DNA of 43,156 nucleotides, from the IMG/VR virus record IMGVR_UViG_2802429223_000002, one strand, 5' to 3'. This DNA is from a virus (Duplodnaviria > Heunggongvirae > Uroviricota > Caudoviricetes). The translations under genes and the position numbers were made by a program. Every line of letters begins with the position of its first letter. Position 1 is the stretch's first letter. Shown here piece by piece: positions 3,517 through 41,787 of the stretch. The notes beneath the pieces are model-generated. The model had not been told where the DNA came from. It saw only the letters and a program-made list of their open reading frames with translations, and did no database searches.

Positions 3517-4101
3517 TTACACGGTGTCTGGTTCTTCTGGCCACTCAATATCAGGTGCAGTTGATGTATCAACACGGTTCAGCAACACCCGATACTTCTT
3601 CCAGGCTTCCAGCAACGAGGTTTCTTCCTCCGTTGCAATTTCCAGATCTGCAGCATCCTGAAGCGGCGCAATATGCTCACTGGCTACCTGCATCAGGTTG
3701 TTTTTTGTTTCTTCCGCCTCCCGGATCCGGAACAGTTTTTCTGCTTCCGTATCCTTCACCCAGGCTGTGCCGTTCCACTTCTGAAACTCCCCTTCCGGCG
3801 ATAACCAGGTAACATTTTCCGGTAACGGACCGAGTTCAGAAATAAATAACGCGTCGCCGGAAGCCACGTCATAAACCGTTTTACCCCGATGATCTTCAAC
3901 GAGATGCCACGATGACTCATCACTGTTGAAAACAGCCACGAAGCCAGCCGGAATATCTGGCGGTGCAATATCGGTACTGTTTGCAGGCAGACCTGTATGA
4001 GGTGGAATATATGCGTCACCTTCACCAATAAATTCATTAGTTCCGGCCAGCAGATTATAAATTTTTATGGTCCGTGGTTGTTCACTCATTCTGAATGCCA
4101 T
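3517..4101 (-). CDS. tfa: tail fiber assembly protein Tfa
   Basis: 194 aa, near-identical along its length to lambda Tfa as I recall it ([44 protein letters not shown]...). Confidence 0.95.
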
Positions 4102-7061
4102 TATGCAAGCCTCACAATGTAGTTAAATGCGATGTTTTTGACGGTGTTTTCCGCGTTACCAGCAGCGTTAACGGTGATGGTGTGTCCATGTGAGCCAATC
4201 GCAACAGAGTGCGTATGAGCACCAATACCGACAGTATGCGCGTGTGCACCTGCAGATGCTGCTGTGCCGGACAGTGAGTGGCTATGATTACCATCTGTAC
4301 TGGTATTAGCTAACCACCCCGTAGACATACCTACTGAGCCTTGTACCCCCCAGGTATTTTGACCTGAGCTTGTATAACCATATTGATAAGTATCTTTAAA
4401 AACACTGGGGTTAAATCGACGGCCATCTCTATGGCTGTGATTACCAGCTGCATTCGTGCTGCCACTTAAACTATGGGTATGCGCCCCGGTGTTATTCGTG
4501 GATTTAGTGCCGTAATCAAACGACGATGTGGTTTTCGTACCCAAATCCGTACTGGATGCGCTGGCGCTGTGGGTGTGCGATTTAATGCCGTCCTGTTCCT
4601 GAGACAATACGGCACGACCACTGGCGGGTTTGCCCTTAATCGTCCAGCCACGCATATCAGGGATCACGCCTGACGGATAAGCGGCTGCAAGTTTCGGGTA
4701 TGCAGATTTGTCAAAAGTCTGCCCCTGCATCAGGGCATAGCCAGACGGAACGGTATCTGATGGCCACGGGATTGGTGCGCCAGGCGGATAAAACTGCTCT
4801 GATGGCGTATAGAGTGAATAAACTGTACCGTCCGTTAACCCTTCCGGCTTATTAGCAGAATATGCTGGTGACGTATGAATCGTCACGCTGGCATTACTGG
4901 TATAATCCCATTGAATATTTACACCAGTCGCATAATTTCCGATTGCAACGTAAATATCGTAAGTATCACCAGATGTATTGACCCAGGCAAAATTTGTAAA
5001 CCCTGTCGATGTGCGCTGCCATAAAGCACCAGTAATCCCCTTCGGATTACCATTACCTGCACGTAAAACAAGTTCAGATATACCTGCCTGTTGAGGTGAC
5101 CCCACGTTAAATCCAGCGCCACCAATCAACGTAATTGAAACAACAGAACTCGCCTGTGGCATGGTTACCGTTGCTAATTTGAACCAACCAGCACCACCGC
5201 TGAATGACATTGTTGTTGAGTTAAGCGTACCAATATCTTTCGGCGTCAGTGTTATATCCGCTGAAAGCGCCTTACCATTCACCTTACGGGCAGAAGGTAC
5301 CCGACCATTCGCATTGTCATTAGCTGCTTTCACTGCTTTCGGTGTCGCAGCAAGCGTTTCAGATGTGCTGTTGGTTGCACTACTGAGCTGGACAATTCCT
5401 TTTTGTGCTGTCGTAGCGTCCTGTGCGGTGTATTTCCCGTTAGCCAGGTCATACGCGGCCTTAACGGCTTTTGGCGTTGCCGCCTGTGACTCGGAAGTGC
5501 TGTTAGTCGCACTGCTGAGCTGAACTATCCCTTTCTGTGCTGTCGTTGCATCCTGTGCGGTGTATTTCCCGTTAGCCAGGTCATACGCGGCCTTAACGGC
5601 TTTTGGCGTTGCCGCCTGTGACTCGGAAGTGCTGTTGGTCGCACTGCTGAGCTGTACTATCCCCTTTTTCGTCGTGCTCGCATCCTCAAGCGCCACGGCG
5701 GATGCAATATCCTCTGCCCGTTTTGCTGCTGTCTCGGCGCGCGTTGCCGCGGATTCCGCCGTACTTTTGCTCTGTGCTGCCGCTGCCGCACTGCCAGCAG
5801 CCTCTGTCGCCTTCGTGGATGCCGTCGTGGCGCTGCCCCTCGCTGCTGACGCCTGTCTGGTCGCCTCATCTTTTGAAGCAGACGCAGATGATGCCGATGA
5901 CGCCGCCGAACTGGCGGACGATGCGGCAGCCGTTTTTGAGGATTCTGCGCTGGTTTCCGACGCTTTCGCGTTCGTTTCGGATGTCTTCGCTGCGGAAGCA
6001 GACCTCGCTGCTGCGCTGGCCTGTTCAGTGGCTTCGCCAGCCTTCGTTGTGGCTGTTGAAGCGGATGATGCGGCGCTTTCTGCCGATTTTCCGGCGGCGG
6101 TGGCACTGACTGCTGCCTCCTCTGCCTTAATGGACGCCTCACGGGCCGATGATGCAGCTGCTGTCTCAGAGTCTGCCGCAGCTGAGGCGCTCTGTTCCGC
6201 TGCCGTTTCAGAAGACCTGGCATTCGTCTCGGACGTTTTTGCCGCCTTCACGGAATTTCCTGCCGCCGTTGCCGAGGAGGCTGCACTGCTGGCGCTTGTG
6301 GAGGCGTTCGTTTCTGATGATTTTGCCGCCTCTTTGGAGGCCGCCGCATCTCTGGCTGAAGTGGCGGCTTCTGACGCTTTCGTCGTCGCAGTGGATGCAG
6401 AAGTGGCTGCTGATTTTTGTGACGCTGCAGCATTCGTTTCTGACGTTTTCGCCGCACCGGCACTGGTGGCCGCCGCGCTTTTTGAGGACTCTGCAGCGGC
6501 AGCACTTTTTGATGCTTCAGTGGCCTTTGTTGATGCCGTTCCTGCGCTGGAAGACGCCTCCTGAGCCGAAGTCGCGGCCTGTCCGGCTGACGTGCTGGCT
6601 GCACGCGCTGAGCCTGCAGCATCAGTCGCATGGGTTGCCGCCTCACGGGCAGATGTGCCGGCATCACTGGCTGACTTCTTCGCGGCTGCCGTGTTCTGTG
6701 CCACCGCGGACGCGTTACGCGTCACCTCTTCCACCATCAGTTCAAAACGGCGCAGAGCCTCCGGACGGGCATCATCCTCCGTCATGGCACCGAGAAAATC
6801 ATTCAGCGTACCGGGTCGGGAATCTTCATACACGGTGATGGTCCCGGCATGTGACGGCGGGAATCCTTCCACCAACAGAATAACGCTGTACTGACCGTAC
6901 TCAACGTCCATGCTGTAACGCCCGGCTTCATCCGGATTTTCTGAGGCCAGCGTGTTCACCACCACCGTGGTGCTGTTACGTTTTGCTTTCAGCTGGATTG
7001 TGCAGTTCTGTACCGGTTTTCCTGTGCCGTCTTTCAGTACACCTGAAATCTTTACTGCCAT
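4101..7061 (-). CDS. stf: side tail fiber protein Stf with expanded internal repeats
   Basis: N-terminus [32 protein letters not shown] matches lambda Stf; long Ala/Ser-rich region; ATG 7059-7061 preferred over GTG 7067. Confidence 0.9.
5275..5670. repeat. three tandem ~132-bp repeats inside stf (two near-perfect, one degenerate)
   Basis: DNA repeat visible by eye; encodes [44 protein letters not shown] three times. Confidence 0.85.
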
Positions 7062-26415: not shown

Positions 26416-26554
26416 TCAGGTCATCAGAAGGACCCACATTAAAGGCAGAATATTCACTCTGATATTACGCATTGTTTTGCTTTTGTAGATTCGCAATTTA
26501 CGGTAAAAATACTTTTGCTATTTCTTCGTACCATAAATGCACAGGAGTATCTTC

Positions 26555-26875
26555 ATGTCCATAAAGGTATTCAGAAGTGACCTTCAGACTGAGAGTGAAT
26601 CAGACTATCGTAATTGGCTTGGCGATAATCCAGACGGATATGTTGTCAATGCATTGAAGCGAACCAGAGGTAAAGGTAATAAATCTGACGAACGCTTTAC
26701 CAGAATCCATAGAGCATCTTGCAAAACGATTAATCCCTTGAAACGCAAGATCGATAAAACAGGATTCACAACTGGAGATTATCAAAAAATATGCTCAACC
26801 AACTTCCTCAATGTTGAAAATGAAGCAAAGAAAATGACAGGTCTGACAAGCATCATCAAATGTCGATGCATCTAA
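26555..26875 (+). CDS. hypothetical protein (AT-rich moron candidate)
   Basis: 106 aa from ATG 26555 with AGGAG SD; opposite strand to the late genes; no family recognised. Confidence 0.5.
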   Translation: MSIKVFRSDLQTESESDYRNWLGDNPDGYVVNALKRTRGKGNKSDERFTRIHRASCKTINPLKRKIDKTGFTTGDYQKICSTNFLNVENEAKKMTGLTSIIKCRCI

Positions 26876-28446: not shown

Positions 28447-28478
28447 AAAAAATCCCCGACAATTCCAGATGTCAGCGG
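28447..28478 (-). terminator. possible tR'-like hairpin and U-tract just upstream of S
   Basis: Minus-strand CTGACA...TGTCGG imperfect stem followed by GGATTTTTTATT. Confidence 0.3.
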
Positions 28479-28675
28479 CCTTAAATATAAAAACAGGCAA
28501 ATGCCGAGGTCCGCTAATCGTTGCCACTATGAGCGCTGCGACGCCATTTCATCCAGCCAAGCTATCAGATACGGAAGCCGTGCTGCCGCTTTTACGGCAT
28601 TGTATTCACTATACTTATCTATTCTGATATCGTTAAATCAACAGAAATAACCAATATCAGAAGGAACGCATTAAT

Positions 28676-29224
28676 ATGGCGAACAATCTTTTTTATACAC
28701 TTGACAGGCAGCGCACACTGAAGTCAGGCATGAAAATTGAATTAGCAGAACCGTACTGCCCAATCGTTCCACTTCAGGCTCATACGAGCTCATTGTTTTC
28801 CGACGGTGTATCCCGGCATGCAAATAATCTTTTTTTCAACTACCACATAAACCTCGTCAGCTCAGACGAACGATTTGGAGCAATAATAGAAATACTACTG
28901 GAAGAACGAAGGAAATCACACTTCCCTGAAAAACCATCGCGCTTCCAATCAATTTTTGCATGTGAGTCTGTAAAAGAAACCGCCTGGTTCAGAGGCTTTT
29001 CAAAATCCCCACTTGACACCCCAATATTTCAAGTCAGCTCATCGTCGAACTATCATAGAGGTGATATGAATTTGTTAAATCTGAACTGCTCCCCAGTAGA
29101 AGTATCTCAGAGGCTGGATCTTTACTGGAAGGGTGAAACAACACAGATTTACGAAGGGTATCAACCATTCTGGGAAGTGCTCATTCCATTGCCAGTTATT
29201 ATTGGTGAAAGAATTATCGAATAA
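28676..29224 (+). CDS. hypothetical protein (Q-S island gene 1)
   Basis: 182 aa, AGGAA SD before ATG; AT-rich; antisense to the late transcript; no family recognised. Confidence 0.55.
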   Translation: MANNLFYTLDRQRTLKSGMKIELAEPYCPIVPLQAHTSSLFSDGVSRHANNLFFNYHINLVSSDERFGAIIEILLEERRKSHFPEKPSRFQSIFACESVKETAWFRGFSKSPLDTPIFQVSSSSNYHRGDMNLLNLNCSPVEVSQRLDLYWKGETTQIYEGYQPFWEVLIPLPVIIGERIIE

Positions 29225-29519
29225 TGGCTCTGACACCAGAATCATTTCCATAGCCGAACTGACGCTGACAGATTTTTAATTCGCTTATGGCTTTCTCCAT
29301 TGCTAATAGCGCGTCTTCAGTACGGTAGCAATCAACCTCAAGAACAAACGTTTTGAGATTGCTACTATCATTCCCGGCGAAAAGCGCATAGCTGGGTTGA
29401 CCAGTCTGATTCATCCCCCCCCCCTCAAACGACGAAACCCGCTCGACGGCGGGTTTAAGCCACGTGACAAAGTAACCACTCTTAACACGATACAATAGTT
29501 TTTGCGTACGCGTTAGCAT
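29214..29519 (-). CDS. hypothetical protein containing a G10 homopolymer tract (Q-S island gene 2)
   Basis: 101 aa ORF; the run of 10 C on the plus strand (29415-29424) encodes E-G-G-G; reading frame depends on tract length. Confidence 0.4.
   Translation of the reverse strand: MLTRTQKLLYRVKSGYFVTWLKPAVERVSSFEGGGMNQTGQPSYALFAGNDSSNLKTFVLEVDCYRTEDALLAMEKAISELKICQRQFGYGNDSGVRAIIR
29415..29424. repeat. C10/G10 homopolymer tract
   Basis: Ten consecutive C at 29415-29424 inside ORF 29214-29519. Confidence 0.95.
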
Positions 29520-29567
29520 TTTTGTTAAAGTATAAAAATGTAATTAAACCAGTATGTCATCACTACA

Positions 29568-30452
29568 ATGAAATGCATCCGAAAACATCCAGCAATAGCT
29601 TATACAGTAATTATTTTAGTTTTTGCCTTAATATACAATTTCACTTGGAGCGTCAATCCAGATTCTTTCATTAAAAACAACGTTCTCAACTCTACACCTG
29701 TATATGATGCCGTTAATTTAGCATATGCGAACAATGAGGTAAAAAAAGAAGCTCCTGTCAGTGTTTCGAGGGAAGTATTTGCAGAGCAAATTTTAACACT
29801 TACAAATCAATTCAATAAGATAATAATTGAAAACTTAGAACTTGAAAAAACATTATCTCAGCAGCAAGAAAAATTAAAACAAATTAGTGAAAGACAATCA
29901 ATAAAGTGGGGCGAAAACACCAAAAAATACATAGCAGACAGTTTGAAAGATTTACACAAAACGCTTATCACTAAAAATAGTGAACGTACTGCCATAGCAT
30001 CTTTAAAAAACAAAACAAATGAAAGTCAGATTAACATTATGCTGGCCGACAAAGATGAAGAAATAGCCAAAATAAACCTTGAAATAGCGTATAAAGAGAA
30101 TGATGCTAATGTCTATATCTTATCTCATGTCGGCGACTTTAACGATCCAATAATCGTTAATGAGCTTGACGCAATCAATAAAGAAATTGAGAAAACAAGA
30201 ACAAAAATAATAAACAATAAAAAGAAAATAATGGAGATAAGGAGTAAATCTCAATCTATGCTGGAGAAACTCAAAAAAGATGACCTTAACTTTTGGGATT
30301 TCTTATTTTATAGCATAGGAATATCTACAACGACCACCTTTGGTGATTTGTTAGCAAATTCAAGACTTATCAGACTGATAGTTTGCGTGCAACTTTTACT
30401 ATCAATTATAGTTTTAGCTAACGTAACTCAAAGATTTTTATCAAAAAAATAA
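29568..30452 (+). CDS. membrane protein: N-terminal TM helix, long coiled-coil, C-terminal pore-loop-like motif (Q-S island gene 3)
   Basis: 294 aa; TM segment AIAYTVIILVFALIYNFTW; Lys/Glu-rich heptad region; C-terminus FLFYSIGISTTTTFGDL then hydrophobic helix RLIVCVQLLLSIIVLANV; very AT-rich. Confidence 0.55.
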   Translation: MKCIRKHPAIAYTVIILVFALIYNFTWSVNPDSFIKNNVLNSTPVYDAVNLAYANNEVKKEAPVSVSREVFAEQILTLTNQFNKIIIENLELEKTLSQQQEKLKQISERQSIKWGENTKKYIADSLKDLHKTLITKNSERTAIASLKNKTNESQINIMLADKDEEIAKINLEIAYKENDANVYILSHVGDFNDPIIVNELDAINKEIEKTRTKIINNKKKIMEIRSKSQSMLEKLKKDDLNFWDFLFYSIGISTTTTFGDLLANSRLIRLIVCVQLLLSIIVLANVTQRFLSKK

Positions 30453-30460
30453 AAAACAAA

Positions 30461-30478
30461 GCCCTCAAAAATGAGGGC
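30461..30478. terminator. bidirectional terminator between island gene 3 and Q
   Basis: GCCCTCA / TGAGGGC 7-bp stem with AAAA loop, flanked by an A-run upstream and TAATTT downstream. Confidence 0.6.
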
Positions 30479-30489
30479 TAATTTAAACC

Positions 30490-40307: not shown

Positions 40308-40657
40308 TGGAGCCATACAGCCTCACACTCGATGAGGCCTGTCATTTTCTCAAGATATCCAGACCGACTGCCATTAACTGGATACGCACAGGGCGTCTTC
40401 AGGCAACACGCAAAGATCCCACTAAGAATAAATCTCCTTACCTCACTACACGACAAGCCTGCATTGCGGCTCTTCAGTCTCCGCTGCATACTGTCCAGGT
40501 GAGCGCGGGTGATGGCATAACAGAGGAAAGAAAATGTCACTCTTCCGCAGAGGTGAAATATGGTACGCCAGTTTCACATTGCCGAACGGTAAAAGATTTA
40601 AACAGTCTCTTGGAACAAAGGACAAAAGGCAGGCGACAGAACTCCATGACAAGCTAA
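40307..40657 (+). CDS. xis: excisionase-like HTH protein (AlpA/Xis family)
   Basis: N-terminal [26 protein letters not shown]; TAATG overlap with upstream gene; ORF runs 124 nt into the int reading frame. Confidence 0.55.
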
Positions 40658-41697
40658 AGGCTGAAGCATGGCGGGTCAGCAAACTTGGTGAAATACCTGA
40701 TATAACATTCGAGGAAGCGTGTGTCAGGTGGCTTGAAGAGAAAGCACATAAAAAATCACTGGACGATGACAAAAGCCGGATCGGATTCTGGCTTCAACAT
40801 TTCGCAGGAATGCAACTAAGAGACATTACTGAATCAAAAATTTATTCAGCAATGCAGAAAATGACGAACCGGCGTCATGAGGAAAACTGGAAACTCAGGG
40901 CAGAAGCATGCAGAAAAAAAGGGAAACCTGTTCCAGAATACACGCCAAAACCAGCGTCCGTTGCAACGAAGGCTACGCATCTTTCATTTATAAAGGCCCT
41001 ACTAAGAGCCGCAGAGCGTGAATGGAAAATGCTGGATAAGGCACCAATTATTAAAGTGCCTCAACCAAAGAATAAACGGATCCGCTGGCTGGAGCCCCAT
41101 GAAGCACAAAGGCTGATTGATGAATGTCCGGAGCCATTAAAGTCTGTTGTTGAATTTGCACTGGCAACAGGCTTAAGACGCTCGAACATCATCAACCTTG
41201 AATGGCAACAAATAGATATGCAGCGCCGGGTGGCATGGATAAACCCGGAAGAGAGTAAATCAAACCGCGCAATTGGCGTTGCGCTGAATGATACTGCATG
41301 TCGCGTATTGAAAAAACAAATCGGGAATCATCACCGTTGGGTATTTGTGTACAAGGAAAGCTGTACCAAACCAGACGGAACGAAAGCGCCAACAGTAAGG
41401 AAGATGCGGTATGACGCAAACACAGCCTGGAAAGCGGCGCTGAGACGGGCTGGTATTGATGATTTCAGATTTCACGACTTGAGACACACCTGGGCAAGTT
41501 GGCTGGTTCAAGCCGGAGTCCCGTTGTCAGTGTTACAGGAAATGGGAGGCTGGGAGTCTATCGAAATGGTTCGTCGATATGCTCACCTTGCACCTAATCA
41601 CCTTACCGAACACGCACGGCAAATAGACTCGATCCTGAACCCATCGGTCCCAAATTTGTCCCAGTCAAAAAATAAGGAAGGTACTAATGATGTGTAA
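40534..41697 (+). CDS. int: tyrosine integrase (P4-type, tRNA-targeting)
   Basis: [15 protein letters not shown]-terminus typical of P4-like integrases; C-terminal catalytic region [15 protein letters not shown]...VRRYAHL; ends 15 nt from the tRNA 3' end. Confidence 0.9.
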
Positions 41698-41711
41698 CTT
41701 ATTGATTTAAA

Positions 41712-41787
41712 TGGTGCCGATAATAGGAGTCGAACCTACGACCTTCGCATTACGAATGCGCTGCTCTACCAACTGAGCTATATCGGC
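41712..41787 (-). tRNA. thrW: tRNA-Thr (anticodon CGU)
   Basis: Reverse complement reads GCCGATATAGCTCAGTTGGTAGAGCAGCGCATTCGTAATGCGAAGGTCGTAGGTTCGACTCCTATTATCGGCACCA: cloverleaf with CGT anticodon and 3' CCA; matches E. coli thrW as recalled. Confidence 0.95.

Follow-up and report, generated by a model that had tools for sequence, protein, structure and literature searches.

Two independently exchanged cargo modules on either side of the late promoter of an Escherichia coli lambdoid prophage

The DNA analysed here is the IMG/VR virus record IMGVR_UViG_2802429223_000002, 43,156 nucleotides (nt) long and called the window throughout. By its sequence it is an Escherichia coli lambdoid prophage, with a structural arm 97-98% identical to E. 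coli genomes and with the late operon on the minus strand. We have focused on the interval between the gene of the late antiterminator Q and the lysis genes (positions 28,676 to 30,452), where three open reading frames, here called ORF1, ORF2 and ORF3, are located. It was found that this region is composed of two unrelated, independently swapping cargo modules placed on either side of the late promoter pR': ORF3 occupies the gap between Q and pR' (slot 1), and ORF2 and ORF1 stand beyond pR', in front of the holin gene (slot 2). The features of the interval, listed from Q towards the lysis genes with protein lengths in amino acids (aa), are as follows.

30849-30490, minus strand: antiterminator Q of the 82/DLP12/H-19B type, PF06530 (Pfam Phage_antitermQ, E = 2.6e-45; phrog_79)
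30460-30479, minus strand: intrinsic terminator with an 8-bp stem directly past the Q stop codon, opposite-strand to the 3' end of ORF3
29568-30452, plus strand: ORF3, 294 aa, K+-channel-like inner-membrane protein, cargo of slot 1 (Pfam, AlphaFold2 (AF2) model, alignments)
29502-29531, plus strand: candidate promoter of the slot-1 cargo, with -35 TTGCGT at 29502-29507 and TG-extended -10 TAAAGT at 29526-29531
29516-29435, minus strand: late control block pR'-qut-hairpin, about 85 bp (alignment to 933W)
29516-29511, minus strand: pR' -35-like CTAACG (alignment to 933W)
29492-29487, minus strand: pR' -10 TATCGT (alignment to 933W)
29473-29466, minus strand: qut-like ACTTTGTC (alignment to 933W)
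29456-29435, minus strand: hairpin, tR' candidate
29415-29424, minus strand: G10 tract, Shine-Dalgarno-like GAGGGG, abutting the ORF2 ATG
29414-29214, minus strand: ORF2, 66 aa, slot 2 (phrog_10826, homolog lengths, substitutions by codon position)
28676-29224, plus strand: ORF1, 182 aa, DUF2441 / BC2332-like ADP-ribosyltransferase fold, slot 2

An earlier note, made from the sequence of the window, had described the three genes as a single island. Its view that foreign, accessory genes have been taken up here, between Q and the lysis genes of a lambdoid prophage, is borne out, and all three have conserved homologs and are real genes (182 aa for ORF1 and 294 aa for ORF3, as it had proposed, but 66 and not 101 aa for the minus-strand gene). 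The single island did not survive the comparison of related loci. A 99%-identical ORF3 stands alone between Q and the late control block in the E. coli contigs L004-6, where a 67-aa gene, a methylase and a lambda-type holin come after ORF3 and the block. Ten sibling contigs (L046-55) have the same Q, block, ORF2 and ORF1 together with a different, 187-aa antisense gene that replaces ORF3, and the ORF2-ORF1 pair also accompanies Q and holin types other than these (L021-25, L045). All three combinations, namely ORF3 alone, ORF1/ORF2 alone and both, are therefore found in nature. The GC content is 0.31 over ORF3 and 0.40-0.42 over ORF1/ORF2, versus 0.48-0.58 in the flanks, and the different levels of the two parts fit two separate origins. 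The region had been called very AT-rich, and its GC is indeed low throughout, but it is strongly AT-rich only over ORF3. Neither ORF3 nor ORF1/ORF2 was present, at the megablast level, in any of 5,426 complete E. coli genomes.

When the interval was compared by megablast with E. coli and phages, only Q and a piece of about 85 bp (about 29425-29512) matched. This block is near-invariant against four sibling prophages, with unrelated DNA on either side (alignment A1), it is conserved among prophages with the same Q type while the flanks vary, and 355 phage records contain it. It aligns with the annotated pR' (TTTACG-16-TATCAT), qut and rho-independent terminator of the hand-annotated phage 933W (alignment A4); on this alignment TATTGT, the former candidate for the pR' -10 hexamer, was replaced by TATCGT. 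An 8-bp palindrome, GCGTACGC, is present within the pR' spacer. In 933W the homologous pR'/qut/terminator stretch abuts the end of Q. In phage 434B, which has a DLP12-type late region, the block lies between the antisense nmpC::IS5 porin and the holin, in mEp460 it comes after an antisense 308-aa gene, and in Stx1a phages (L028) it comes after three antisense genes, directly before stx1AB. At the locus L001 the antisense cargo overlaps the stop codon and 3' end of Q, so there is no room for a promoter at that place. For the S-R-Rz operon of DLP12, expression from a regulatory region immediately in front of essD, controlled by the Q-type antiterminator, is reported, and this Q-controlled promoter region has been cloned (PMC7918800). 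Judged by homology, by its position upstream of the late genes and by its co-occurrence with Q, the block is the lambdoid late control unit of the 82/DLP12/933W type, and the late transcript would start at the block (29516->29435), not next to Q. A literal search of the literature for the sequence letters of the block gave no occurrence.

Slot 1 was found to accommodate at least eight unrelated cargos: ORF3, the nmpC porin, the pair PDC-M53A/B (PADLOC E = 1e-31 and 2e-54, found in a sibling E. coli prophage) and five sets that had no match in Pfam or PADLOC. The nmpC/lc porin moron of DLP12, PA-2 and the 434B recombinant shares with ORF3 the slot between an 82/DLP12-type Q and the pR' block, the orientation antisense to Q and the character of an independent cargo; however, it encodes an outer-membrane beta-barrel porin, which has no sequence relationship to the alpha-helical, P-loop channel-like inner-membrane protein of the window. 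PDC-M53, a PADLOC candidate system, has the same slot and orientation, but it consists of two genes (342 + 191 aa) without Pfam domains, is unrelated to ORF3 and is itself a computational candidate. Stx phages with this Q type carry uncharacterised antisense sets between Q and pR', directly upstream of the toxin promoter. Two unannotated sets of this kind are those of 220+130+350 aa in L028 (Stx1a phage Stx1_14040, 836-2943) and of 343+179 aa in L003 (Stx2a_1447, 3629-5192), and neither had Pfam or PADLOC matches. The earlier note had assigned the whole region to the position of stx, which is right for ORF2/ORF1 (29414-28676) but not for ORF3, since it lies upstream of pR', in the slot that the three antisense genes fill in the Stx1a phages, where stx1AB comes after the block. 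It had also regarded two genes as antisense to the late transcript; this would apply to ORF1 only, because ORF3, situated between Q and pR', would not be crossed by that transcript.

A TAnnnT hexamer (at least 4/6) stands 17-18 nt from the TTGCGT of the conserved block in 7/7 sequence-distinct cargo junctions (the window, L001, L002, L003, L027, L028 and L046), the chance of such a hexamer being about 0.16 per cassette. This pattern suggests that the slot-1 cargos share a built-in promoter, divergent from and back-to-back with pR', and ORF3 is probably transcribed from this TTGCGT-based promoter, with the transcript ending at the hairpin of the Q terminator (30460-30479). That hairpin had been taken for a bidirectional terminator. 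It is stable (dG -14.5 kcal/mol, z = -3.5), but the U-run is found only on the Q-sense strand (UUUGUUUUUUAUU), and the ORF3 strand continues as AAUUUAAACC; it thus qualifies as a canonical terminator in the direction of Q, and in that of ORF3 it would be weak at best. A RyhB-like Rfam match turned out to be merely this Q terminator, and the Rfam scan of 27-32 kb (E <= 1) contained nothing credible.

The view that none of the genes resembles a nameable family had to be given up for ORF1, which belongs to Pfam DUF2441 of the ADP-ribosyltransferase clan, and for ORF3, which carries the Ion_trans_2 K+-channel pore domain. ORF3 had been correctly recognized as a membrane protein and has two transmembrane (TM) helices. 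Ion_trans_2 (PF07885) matches its residues 239-290 with 24.6 bits against a gathering score of 22.5, and a precomputed PF07885 match is present in most homologs. In the AF2 model (predicted local distance difference test score, pLDDT, 83) the helices are TM1 (8-29), three long helices (68-145, 152-186 and 194-237), a pore helix (242-253) and TM2 (266-293), so about 210 residues, mostly a three-helix bundle (68-237, about 170 aa), are inserted between M1 and the pore helix. The K-channel topology, together with the positive-inside rule as judged from the sequence letters, predicts a periplasmic position of this bundle. In an alignment of 66 sequences P31, D32, S33 and F34 (PDSF motif), N41 and P44 are invariant after TM1, with W27 nearly so, and D244, S249, G251, T254-T257, F258, G259 and D260 are invariant around the filter. 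The filter itself is TTTTFGD (254-260) in all 66. The pores of KvLm, KcsA and BK align with ORF3 ungapped and in register, with TTTTFGD opposite TTVGYGD, each match being weak individually. Based on the match of the hidden Markov model (HMM) and on the modelled helix/pore/helix architecture, ORF3 is assigned to the K+-channel P-loop superfamily, with a non-canonical filter, and it may form a tetrameric cation pore. No solved structure resembles the whole of ORF3. At E <= 1e-30 the family counts 164 clusters (50% identity), with lengths of about 300 aa in nearly all of them, and its distribution is patchy: a strict peptide pattern recovered only 5 loci among 185,579 species representatives.

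The homologs of ORF3 have repeatedly been met beside mobile or defence genes. In a clade of 297-aa proteins in Enterobacterales (P0022/P0024; L007-L012, L032-L035) the gene always faces a convergent PADLOC dGTPase gene (E = 1.5e-109). Three different mobile backgrounds show this arrangement, and on one of them GajA (E = 1.8e-196), PDC-S73 and ArdC are present as well; the ORF3 homolog and the dGTPase may work as a pair or may simply have been mobilised together. Other homologs stand at the ends of decayed P2-like prophages, one of them with a TIR gene. The Vibrio homologs (27% identity; L040-L043, 6331-7915) always follow an overlapping 226-aa gene, which had no Pfam or PADLOC match, and this operon of 226 aa + 304 aa occurs in four unrelated backgrounds; in one it adjoins an Mrr-STAND NTPase, and in another it is cargo of a type I-F Tn7-CRISPR transposon (Tn7-CAST). 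In a batch PADLOC scan of 145 neighbours, which is semi-quantitative only, PDC-S06 and reverse transcriptases also appeared, and matches to mad3 were set aside as they are probably ABC-type ATPases.

A tetrameric or oligomeric membrane pore that depolarises the infected cell, as may be proposed for ORF3, is represented by Hailong HalA, type III CRISPR Chp1 and lambda RexB, and HalA is described as possessing a K+-channel (IRK) domain (PMC13586616). These proteins act with a cytoplasmic sensor or partner (the HalB nucleotidyltransferase, cyclic oligoadenylate (cOA)/CARF and RexA, respectively), whereas ORF3 is solitary in E. coli, and no Hailong-type nucleotidyltransferase partner stands beside it in the window or in L004-6. 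ORF3 differs from them also in the extra domain, predicted to be periplasmic, in its non-canonical filter and in having no sequence match to them beyond the generic pore.

In slot 2 the minus-strand ORF of 101 aa spans 29519-29214, but its first 35 codons overlie the conserved non-coding promoter/hairpin block. Since phrog_10826 covers only aa 36-101 and the homologs are called at 65-71 aa, the gene is taken to start at the ATG at 29414 and to encode 66 aa. Substitutions in ORF2 are far more frequent at third than at first codon positions and least frequent at second ones (e.g. 20/10/40 at positions one to three), and by this sequence pattern it is a real gene under purifying selection. ORF2 begins 12-70 nt past a terminator hairpin in four backgrounds, and from this position it is read as the first gene of the late transcript. 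Beyond phrog_10826, a PHROG without assigned function, no family was detected for ORF2 in the Pfam, PADLOC and NCBIfam scans. In sibling phages a gene of 65-67 aa comes after the block; it was considered as a homolog of ORF2 and proved to be unrelated on comparison. The G10 tract in front of the ATG is exact in the window and in 11 related loci (L044, L046-L055), and L021 has GAGGAGGGGGGA instead; the constant length of the tract in all assemblies gives no support to phase variation. A decayed copy of the block and ORF2 was observed in L044 (4900-5300). Single bases have been deleted from it, one of them in the hairpin; few genes are called in the surrounding region, where a Bor-like gene lies close by, and the copy appears to be a degraded prophage remnant.

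ORF1 and ORF2 are convergent, with an 11-nt overlap of their 3' ends in the window and 10-11 nt in every locus. A convergent partner of 65-71 aa accompanies ORF1 in all homologs down to 49% identity, and the pair always stands just upstream of the holin (three holin families), downstream of other Q types as well. ORF1 shows the HMM match and shared fold of the ADP-ribosyltransferase superfamily, BC2332-like / DUF2441 (PF10386), is 21% identical to BC2332 and has invariant polar residues including R11, R89, H127, Y150 and E167. Foldseek comparison with viral models returned only other uncharacterised DUF2441-like proteins, and we know of no DUF2441 member with demonstrated activity or target. 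BC2332 is reported to match diphtheria-toxin-type active-site templates (PMC3024214), and SCOP places 'BC2332-like' proteins in the ADP-ribosylation superfamily (PMC3000352). In comparison with BC2332 (PDB 2AUA), DarT, the RES/ParT/MbcT toxins and AcrIF11, the partner of ORF1 is a convergent 66-aa protein, not a macrodomain or an Xre-type antitoxin. The pair shows strict co-occurrence, however it is not the co-transcribed operon of a type II toxin-antitoxin system. The stx genes occupy the same kind of place, between the late leader hairpin and the holin, but they are co-directional with late transcription, whereas ORF1 is antisense and only ORF2 is co-directional.

In the best overall explanation, to which we give a probability of about 0.6, two independent moron cassettes lie in adjacent slots split by the pR'-qut-hairpin block. 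Starting from the observed anatomy, independent assortment, folds and neighbourhoods, we infer an expression pattern, channel and enzymatic activities and possible defence roles as follows. ORF3 would be expressed in the lysogen and form a tetrameric cation pore that is normally shut. An incoming phage would perturb the envelope, the periplasmic bundle of ORF3 would sense this, and opening of the pore would dissipate the membrane potential, with superinfection exclusion or abortive infection as the outcome. ORF1 would be made in the lysogen from its own promoter and would use NAD+ to modify a target in the host or in a phage. Once the prophage enters the lytic cycle, Q-modified transcription running antisense across ORF1 would silence it, and the same transcription would make ORF2, a candidate inhibitor or modulator of ORF1. 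P22 sieB/esc with the antisense sas RNA and BstA/aba are self-immunity arrangements of prophage exclusion genes. The arrangement proposed for ORF1/ORF2 would be analogous, with a lysogen-expressed exclusion gene that the phage neutralises, through antisense transcription or a linked element, once it goes lytic itself, although the molecules are entirely different. Expression in the lysogen or a role in defence, as suggested earlier, is a reasonable expectation, and an anti-phage function of the cargo genes is plausible; none of the ORFs was linked by the homology searches to a known phage function outside defence that is conserved here. The more far-reaching proposal, that ORF3 is a new single-protein anti-phage system (a K+-channel-derived pore with a periplasmic sensor tower, acting by collapse of the potential) and that the Q-to-pR' gap is a plug-in defence slot with a shared promoter, is put forward only tentatively, as less likely than not.

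Several observations weigh against this explanation. As regards the late control block, the pR' -35 of the window (CTAACG) is poor, and in Sp5, a 933W-like phage, the mapped pR' RNA StxS ends 258 nt from its start (PMC7547250), which by arithmetic on the 933W annotation is the second annotated terminator of 933W, so that the first hairpin is read through in Sp5. The U-run of the window hairpin (29456-29435) is interrupted, thus this hairpin may be leaky and ORF2 made constitutively; the StxS study concerns the 933W-type layout, with pR' abutting Q, and offers a principle, not a proof, for the window (PMC7547250). The promoter of ORF3 is a consensus-level prediction, and for ORF1 no promoter was found at the consensus level. 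ORF3 does not have the T-[VI]-G-[YF]-G selectivity filter, as Thr replaces the first Gly, so its conduction and K+ selectivity are not to be assumed. Foldseek of ORF3 against the PDB gave generic coiled coils only and nothing at E <= 0.001, the best match of ORF3 in PADLOC-DB v2.0 (2023) was at chance level (E = 0.072) with none for ORF1 and ORF2, and NCBIfam had no match for any of the three. In Serratia marcescens the ORF3 homolog is a lone chromosomal gene in metabolic surroundings, between an acetyltransferase and nrdDG, and the link of ORF3 to defence is guilt by association that is not universal. The invariant residues of ORF1 gave no assignment of a catalytic triad (H-Y-E or R-S-E), and in the Klebsiella phage KP12 the holin and a DUF2441 gene point in the same direction, so that antisense placement is no rule of the family.

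Some of these observations favour other explanations. ORF3 could be a physiological ion channel, a fitness moron for K+/cation homeostasis or osmotic/pH adaptation without any role in phage conflict; its Ion_trans_2 pore domain, the Serratia locus and the lack of a matching defence-database model are in favour of this. However, the first glycine of the filter is essential for K+ selectivity, and it is replaced in every member of the family, which moreover is patchy (0/5,426 complete E. coli genomes; 5 of the 185,579 species representatives by the strict pattern) and is found again and again in mobile or defence contexts; we consider a purely physiological role rather unlikely. Somewhat more weight, though still on the doubtful side, is given to ORF1/ORF2 as an offensive or addiction module, that is, a host-takeover or counter-defence ADP-ribosyltransferase like T4 Alt/Mod and AcrIF11, or a prophage-stabilising toxin with ORF2 as antitoxin. 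Against this, every enterobacterial prophage sampled has ORF1 antisense to the late transcript, the wrong arrangement for a late takeover enzyme, the pair is convergent, unlike co-transcribed type II systems, and ORF2 is placed for production mainly during the lytic phase.

ORF3 as a lysis-timing factor (holin, antiholin or pinholin-like depolariser) is very improbable: it is a small inner-membrane protein near an S21-type holin cassette, but it stands on the opposite strand and upstream of pR', its homologs occur in islands and chromosomal sites without lysis genes, and the lysis cassette stays the same where unrelated cargos take its place. Least probable of all is the single-island model, in which all three genes would have entered the Q-S interval together and would work jointly, as an island or a defence system. 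Their adjacency and a GC content below that of the flanks speak for it, but all three combinations exist, the GC of the parts differs (0.31 vs 0.41), and the phage's own late promoter/terminator block stands between them.

The genes on either side of the interval are the following.

31847-30852, minus strand: DUF968/HNH gene
28408-28193, minus strand: S21-type holin/antiholin, first lysis gene, with the dual start MKSM read off the sequence (Pfam Phage_holin_2_1, E = 3.8e-35)
28193-27696, minus strand: signal-arrest-release (SAR)-type lysozyme
27711-27256, minus strand: Rz

A second terminator-like hairpin followed by TTTTTT (28456-28475, minus strand) lies about 40 nt upstream of the holin start, and a promoter-like TTAACG-17-TATAGT aimed at the holin is present at 28608-28636 (minus strand); by their sequence, either could modulate expression of the lysis genes independently of the late block. 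Just downstream of Rz, a third low-GC patch (0.38-0.40) contains an antisense-strand ORF of 112 aa (26537-26875, plus strand), without a match in Pfam, PHROGs, PADLOC or NCBIfam. The position just past Rz is where lambda carries bor, and this region could be a further cargo slot. An integrase of 387 aa (40534-41787, plus strand) stands at the right end of the window and adjoins a minus-strand tRNA-Thr(CGT), likely the prophage attachment site.

Morons in the Q-to-S interval, as well as defence effectors of the channel type and of the ADP-ribosyltransferase type, are well known already. What is new here is the precise map of two slots around pR', the shared promoter element of slot 1 and two uncharacterised candidate families. 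Prophage cargo slots are a productive source of new immune genes, and the two slots have been mapped relative to the late promoter of a very common type of E. coli prophage, whose control unit also drives the expression of Shiga toxin. The families nominated are a channel-like protein whose homologs are met near dGTPase, Gabija, TIR and STAND genes, and a protein of ADP-ribosyltransferase fold with an obligate small partner, arranged in such a way that late transcription could switch ORF1 off. If either family protects against phage, it would represent a new type of effector; if not, the two would be clean examples of modular moron exchange around pR'.

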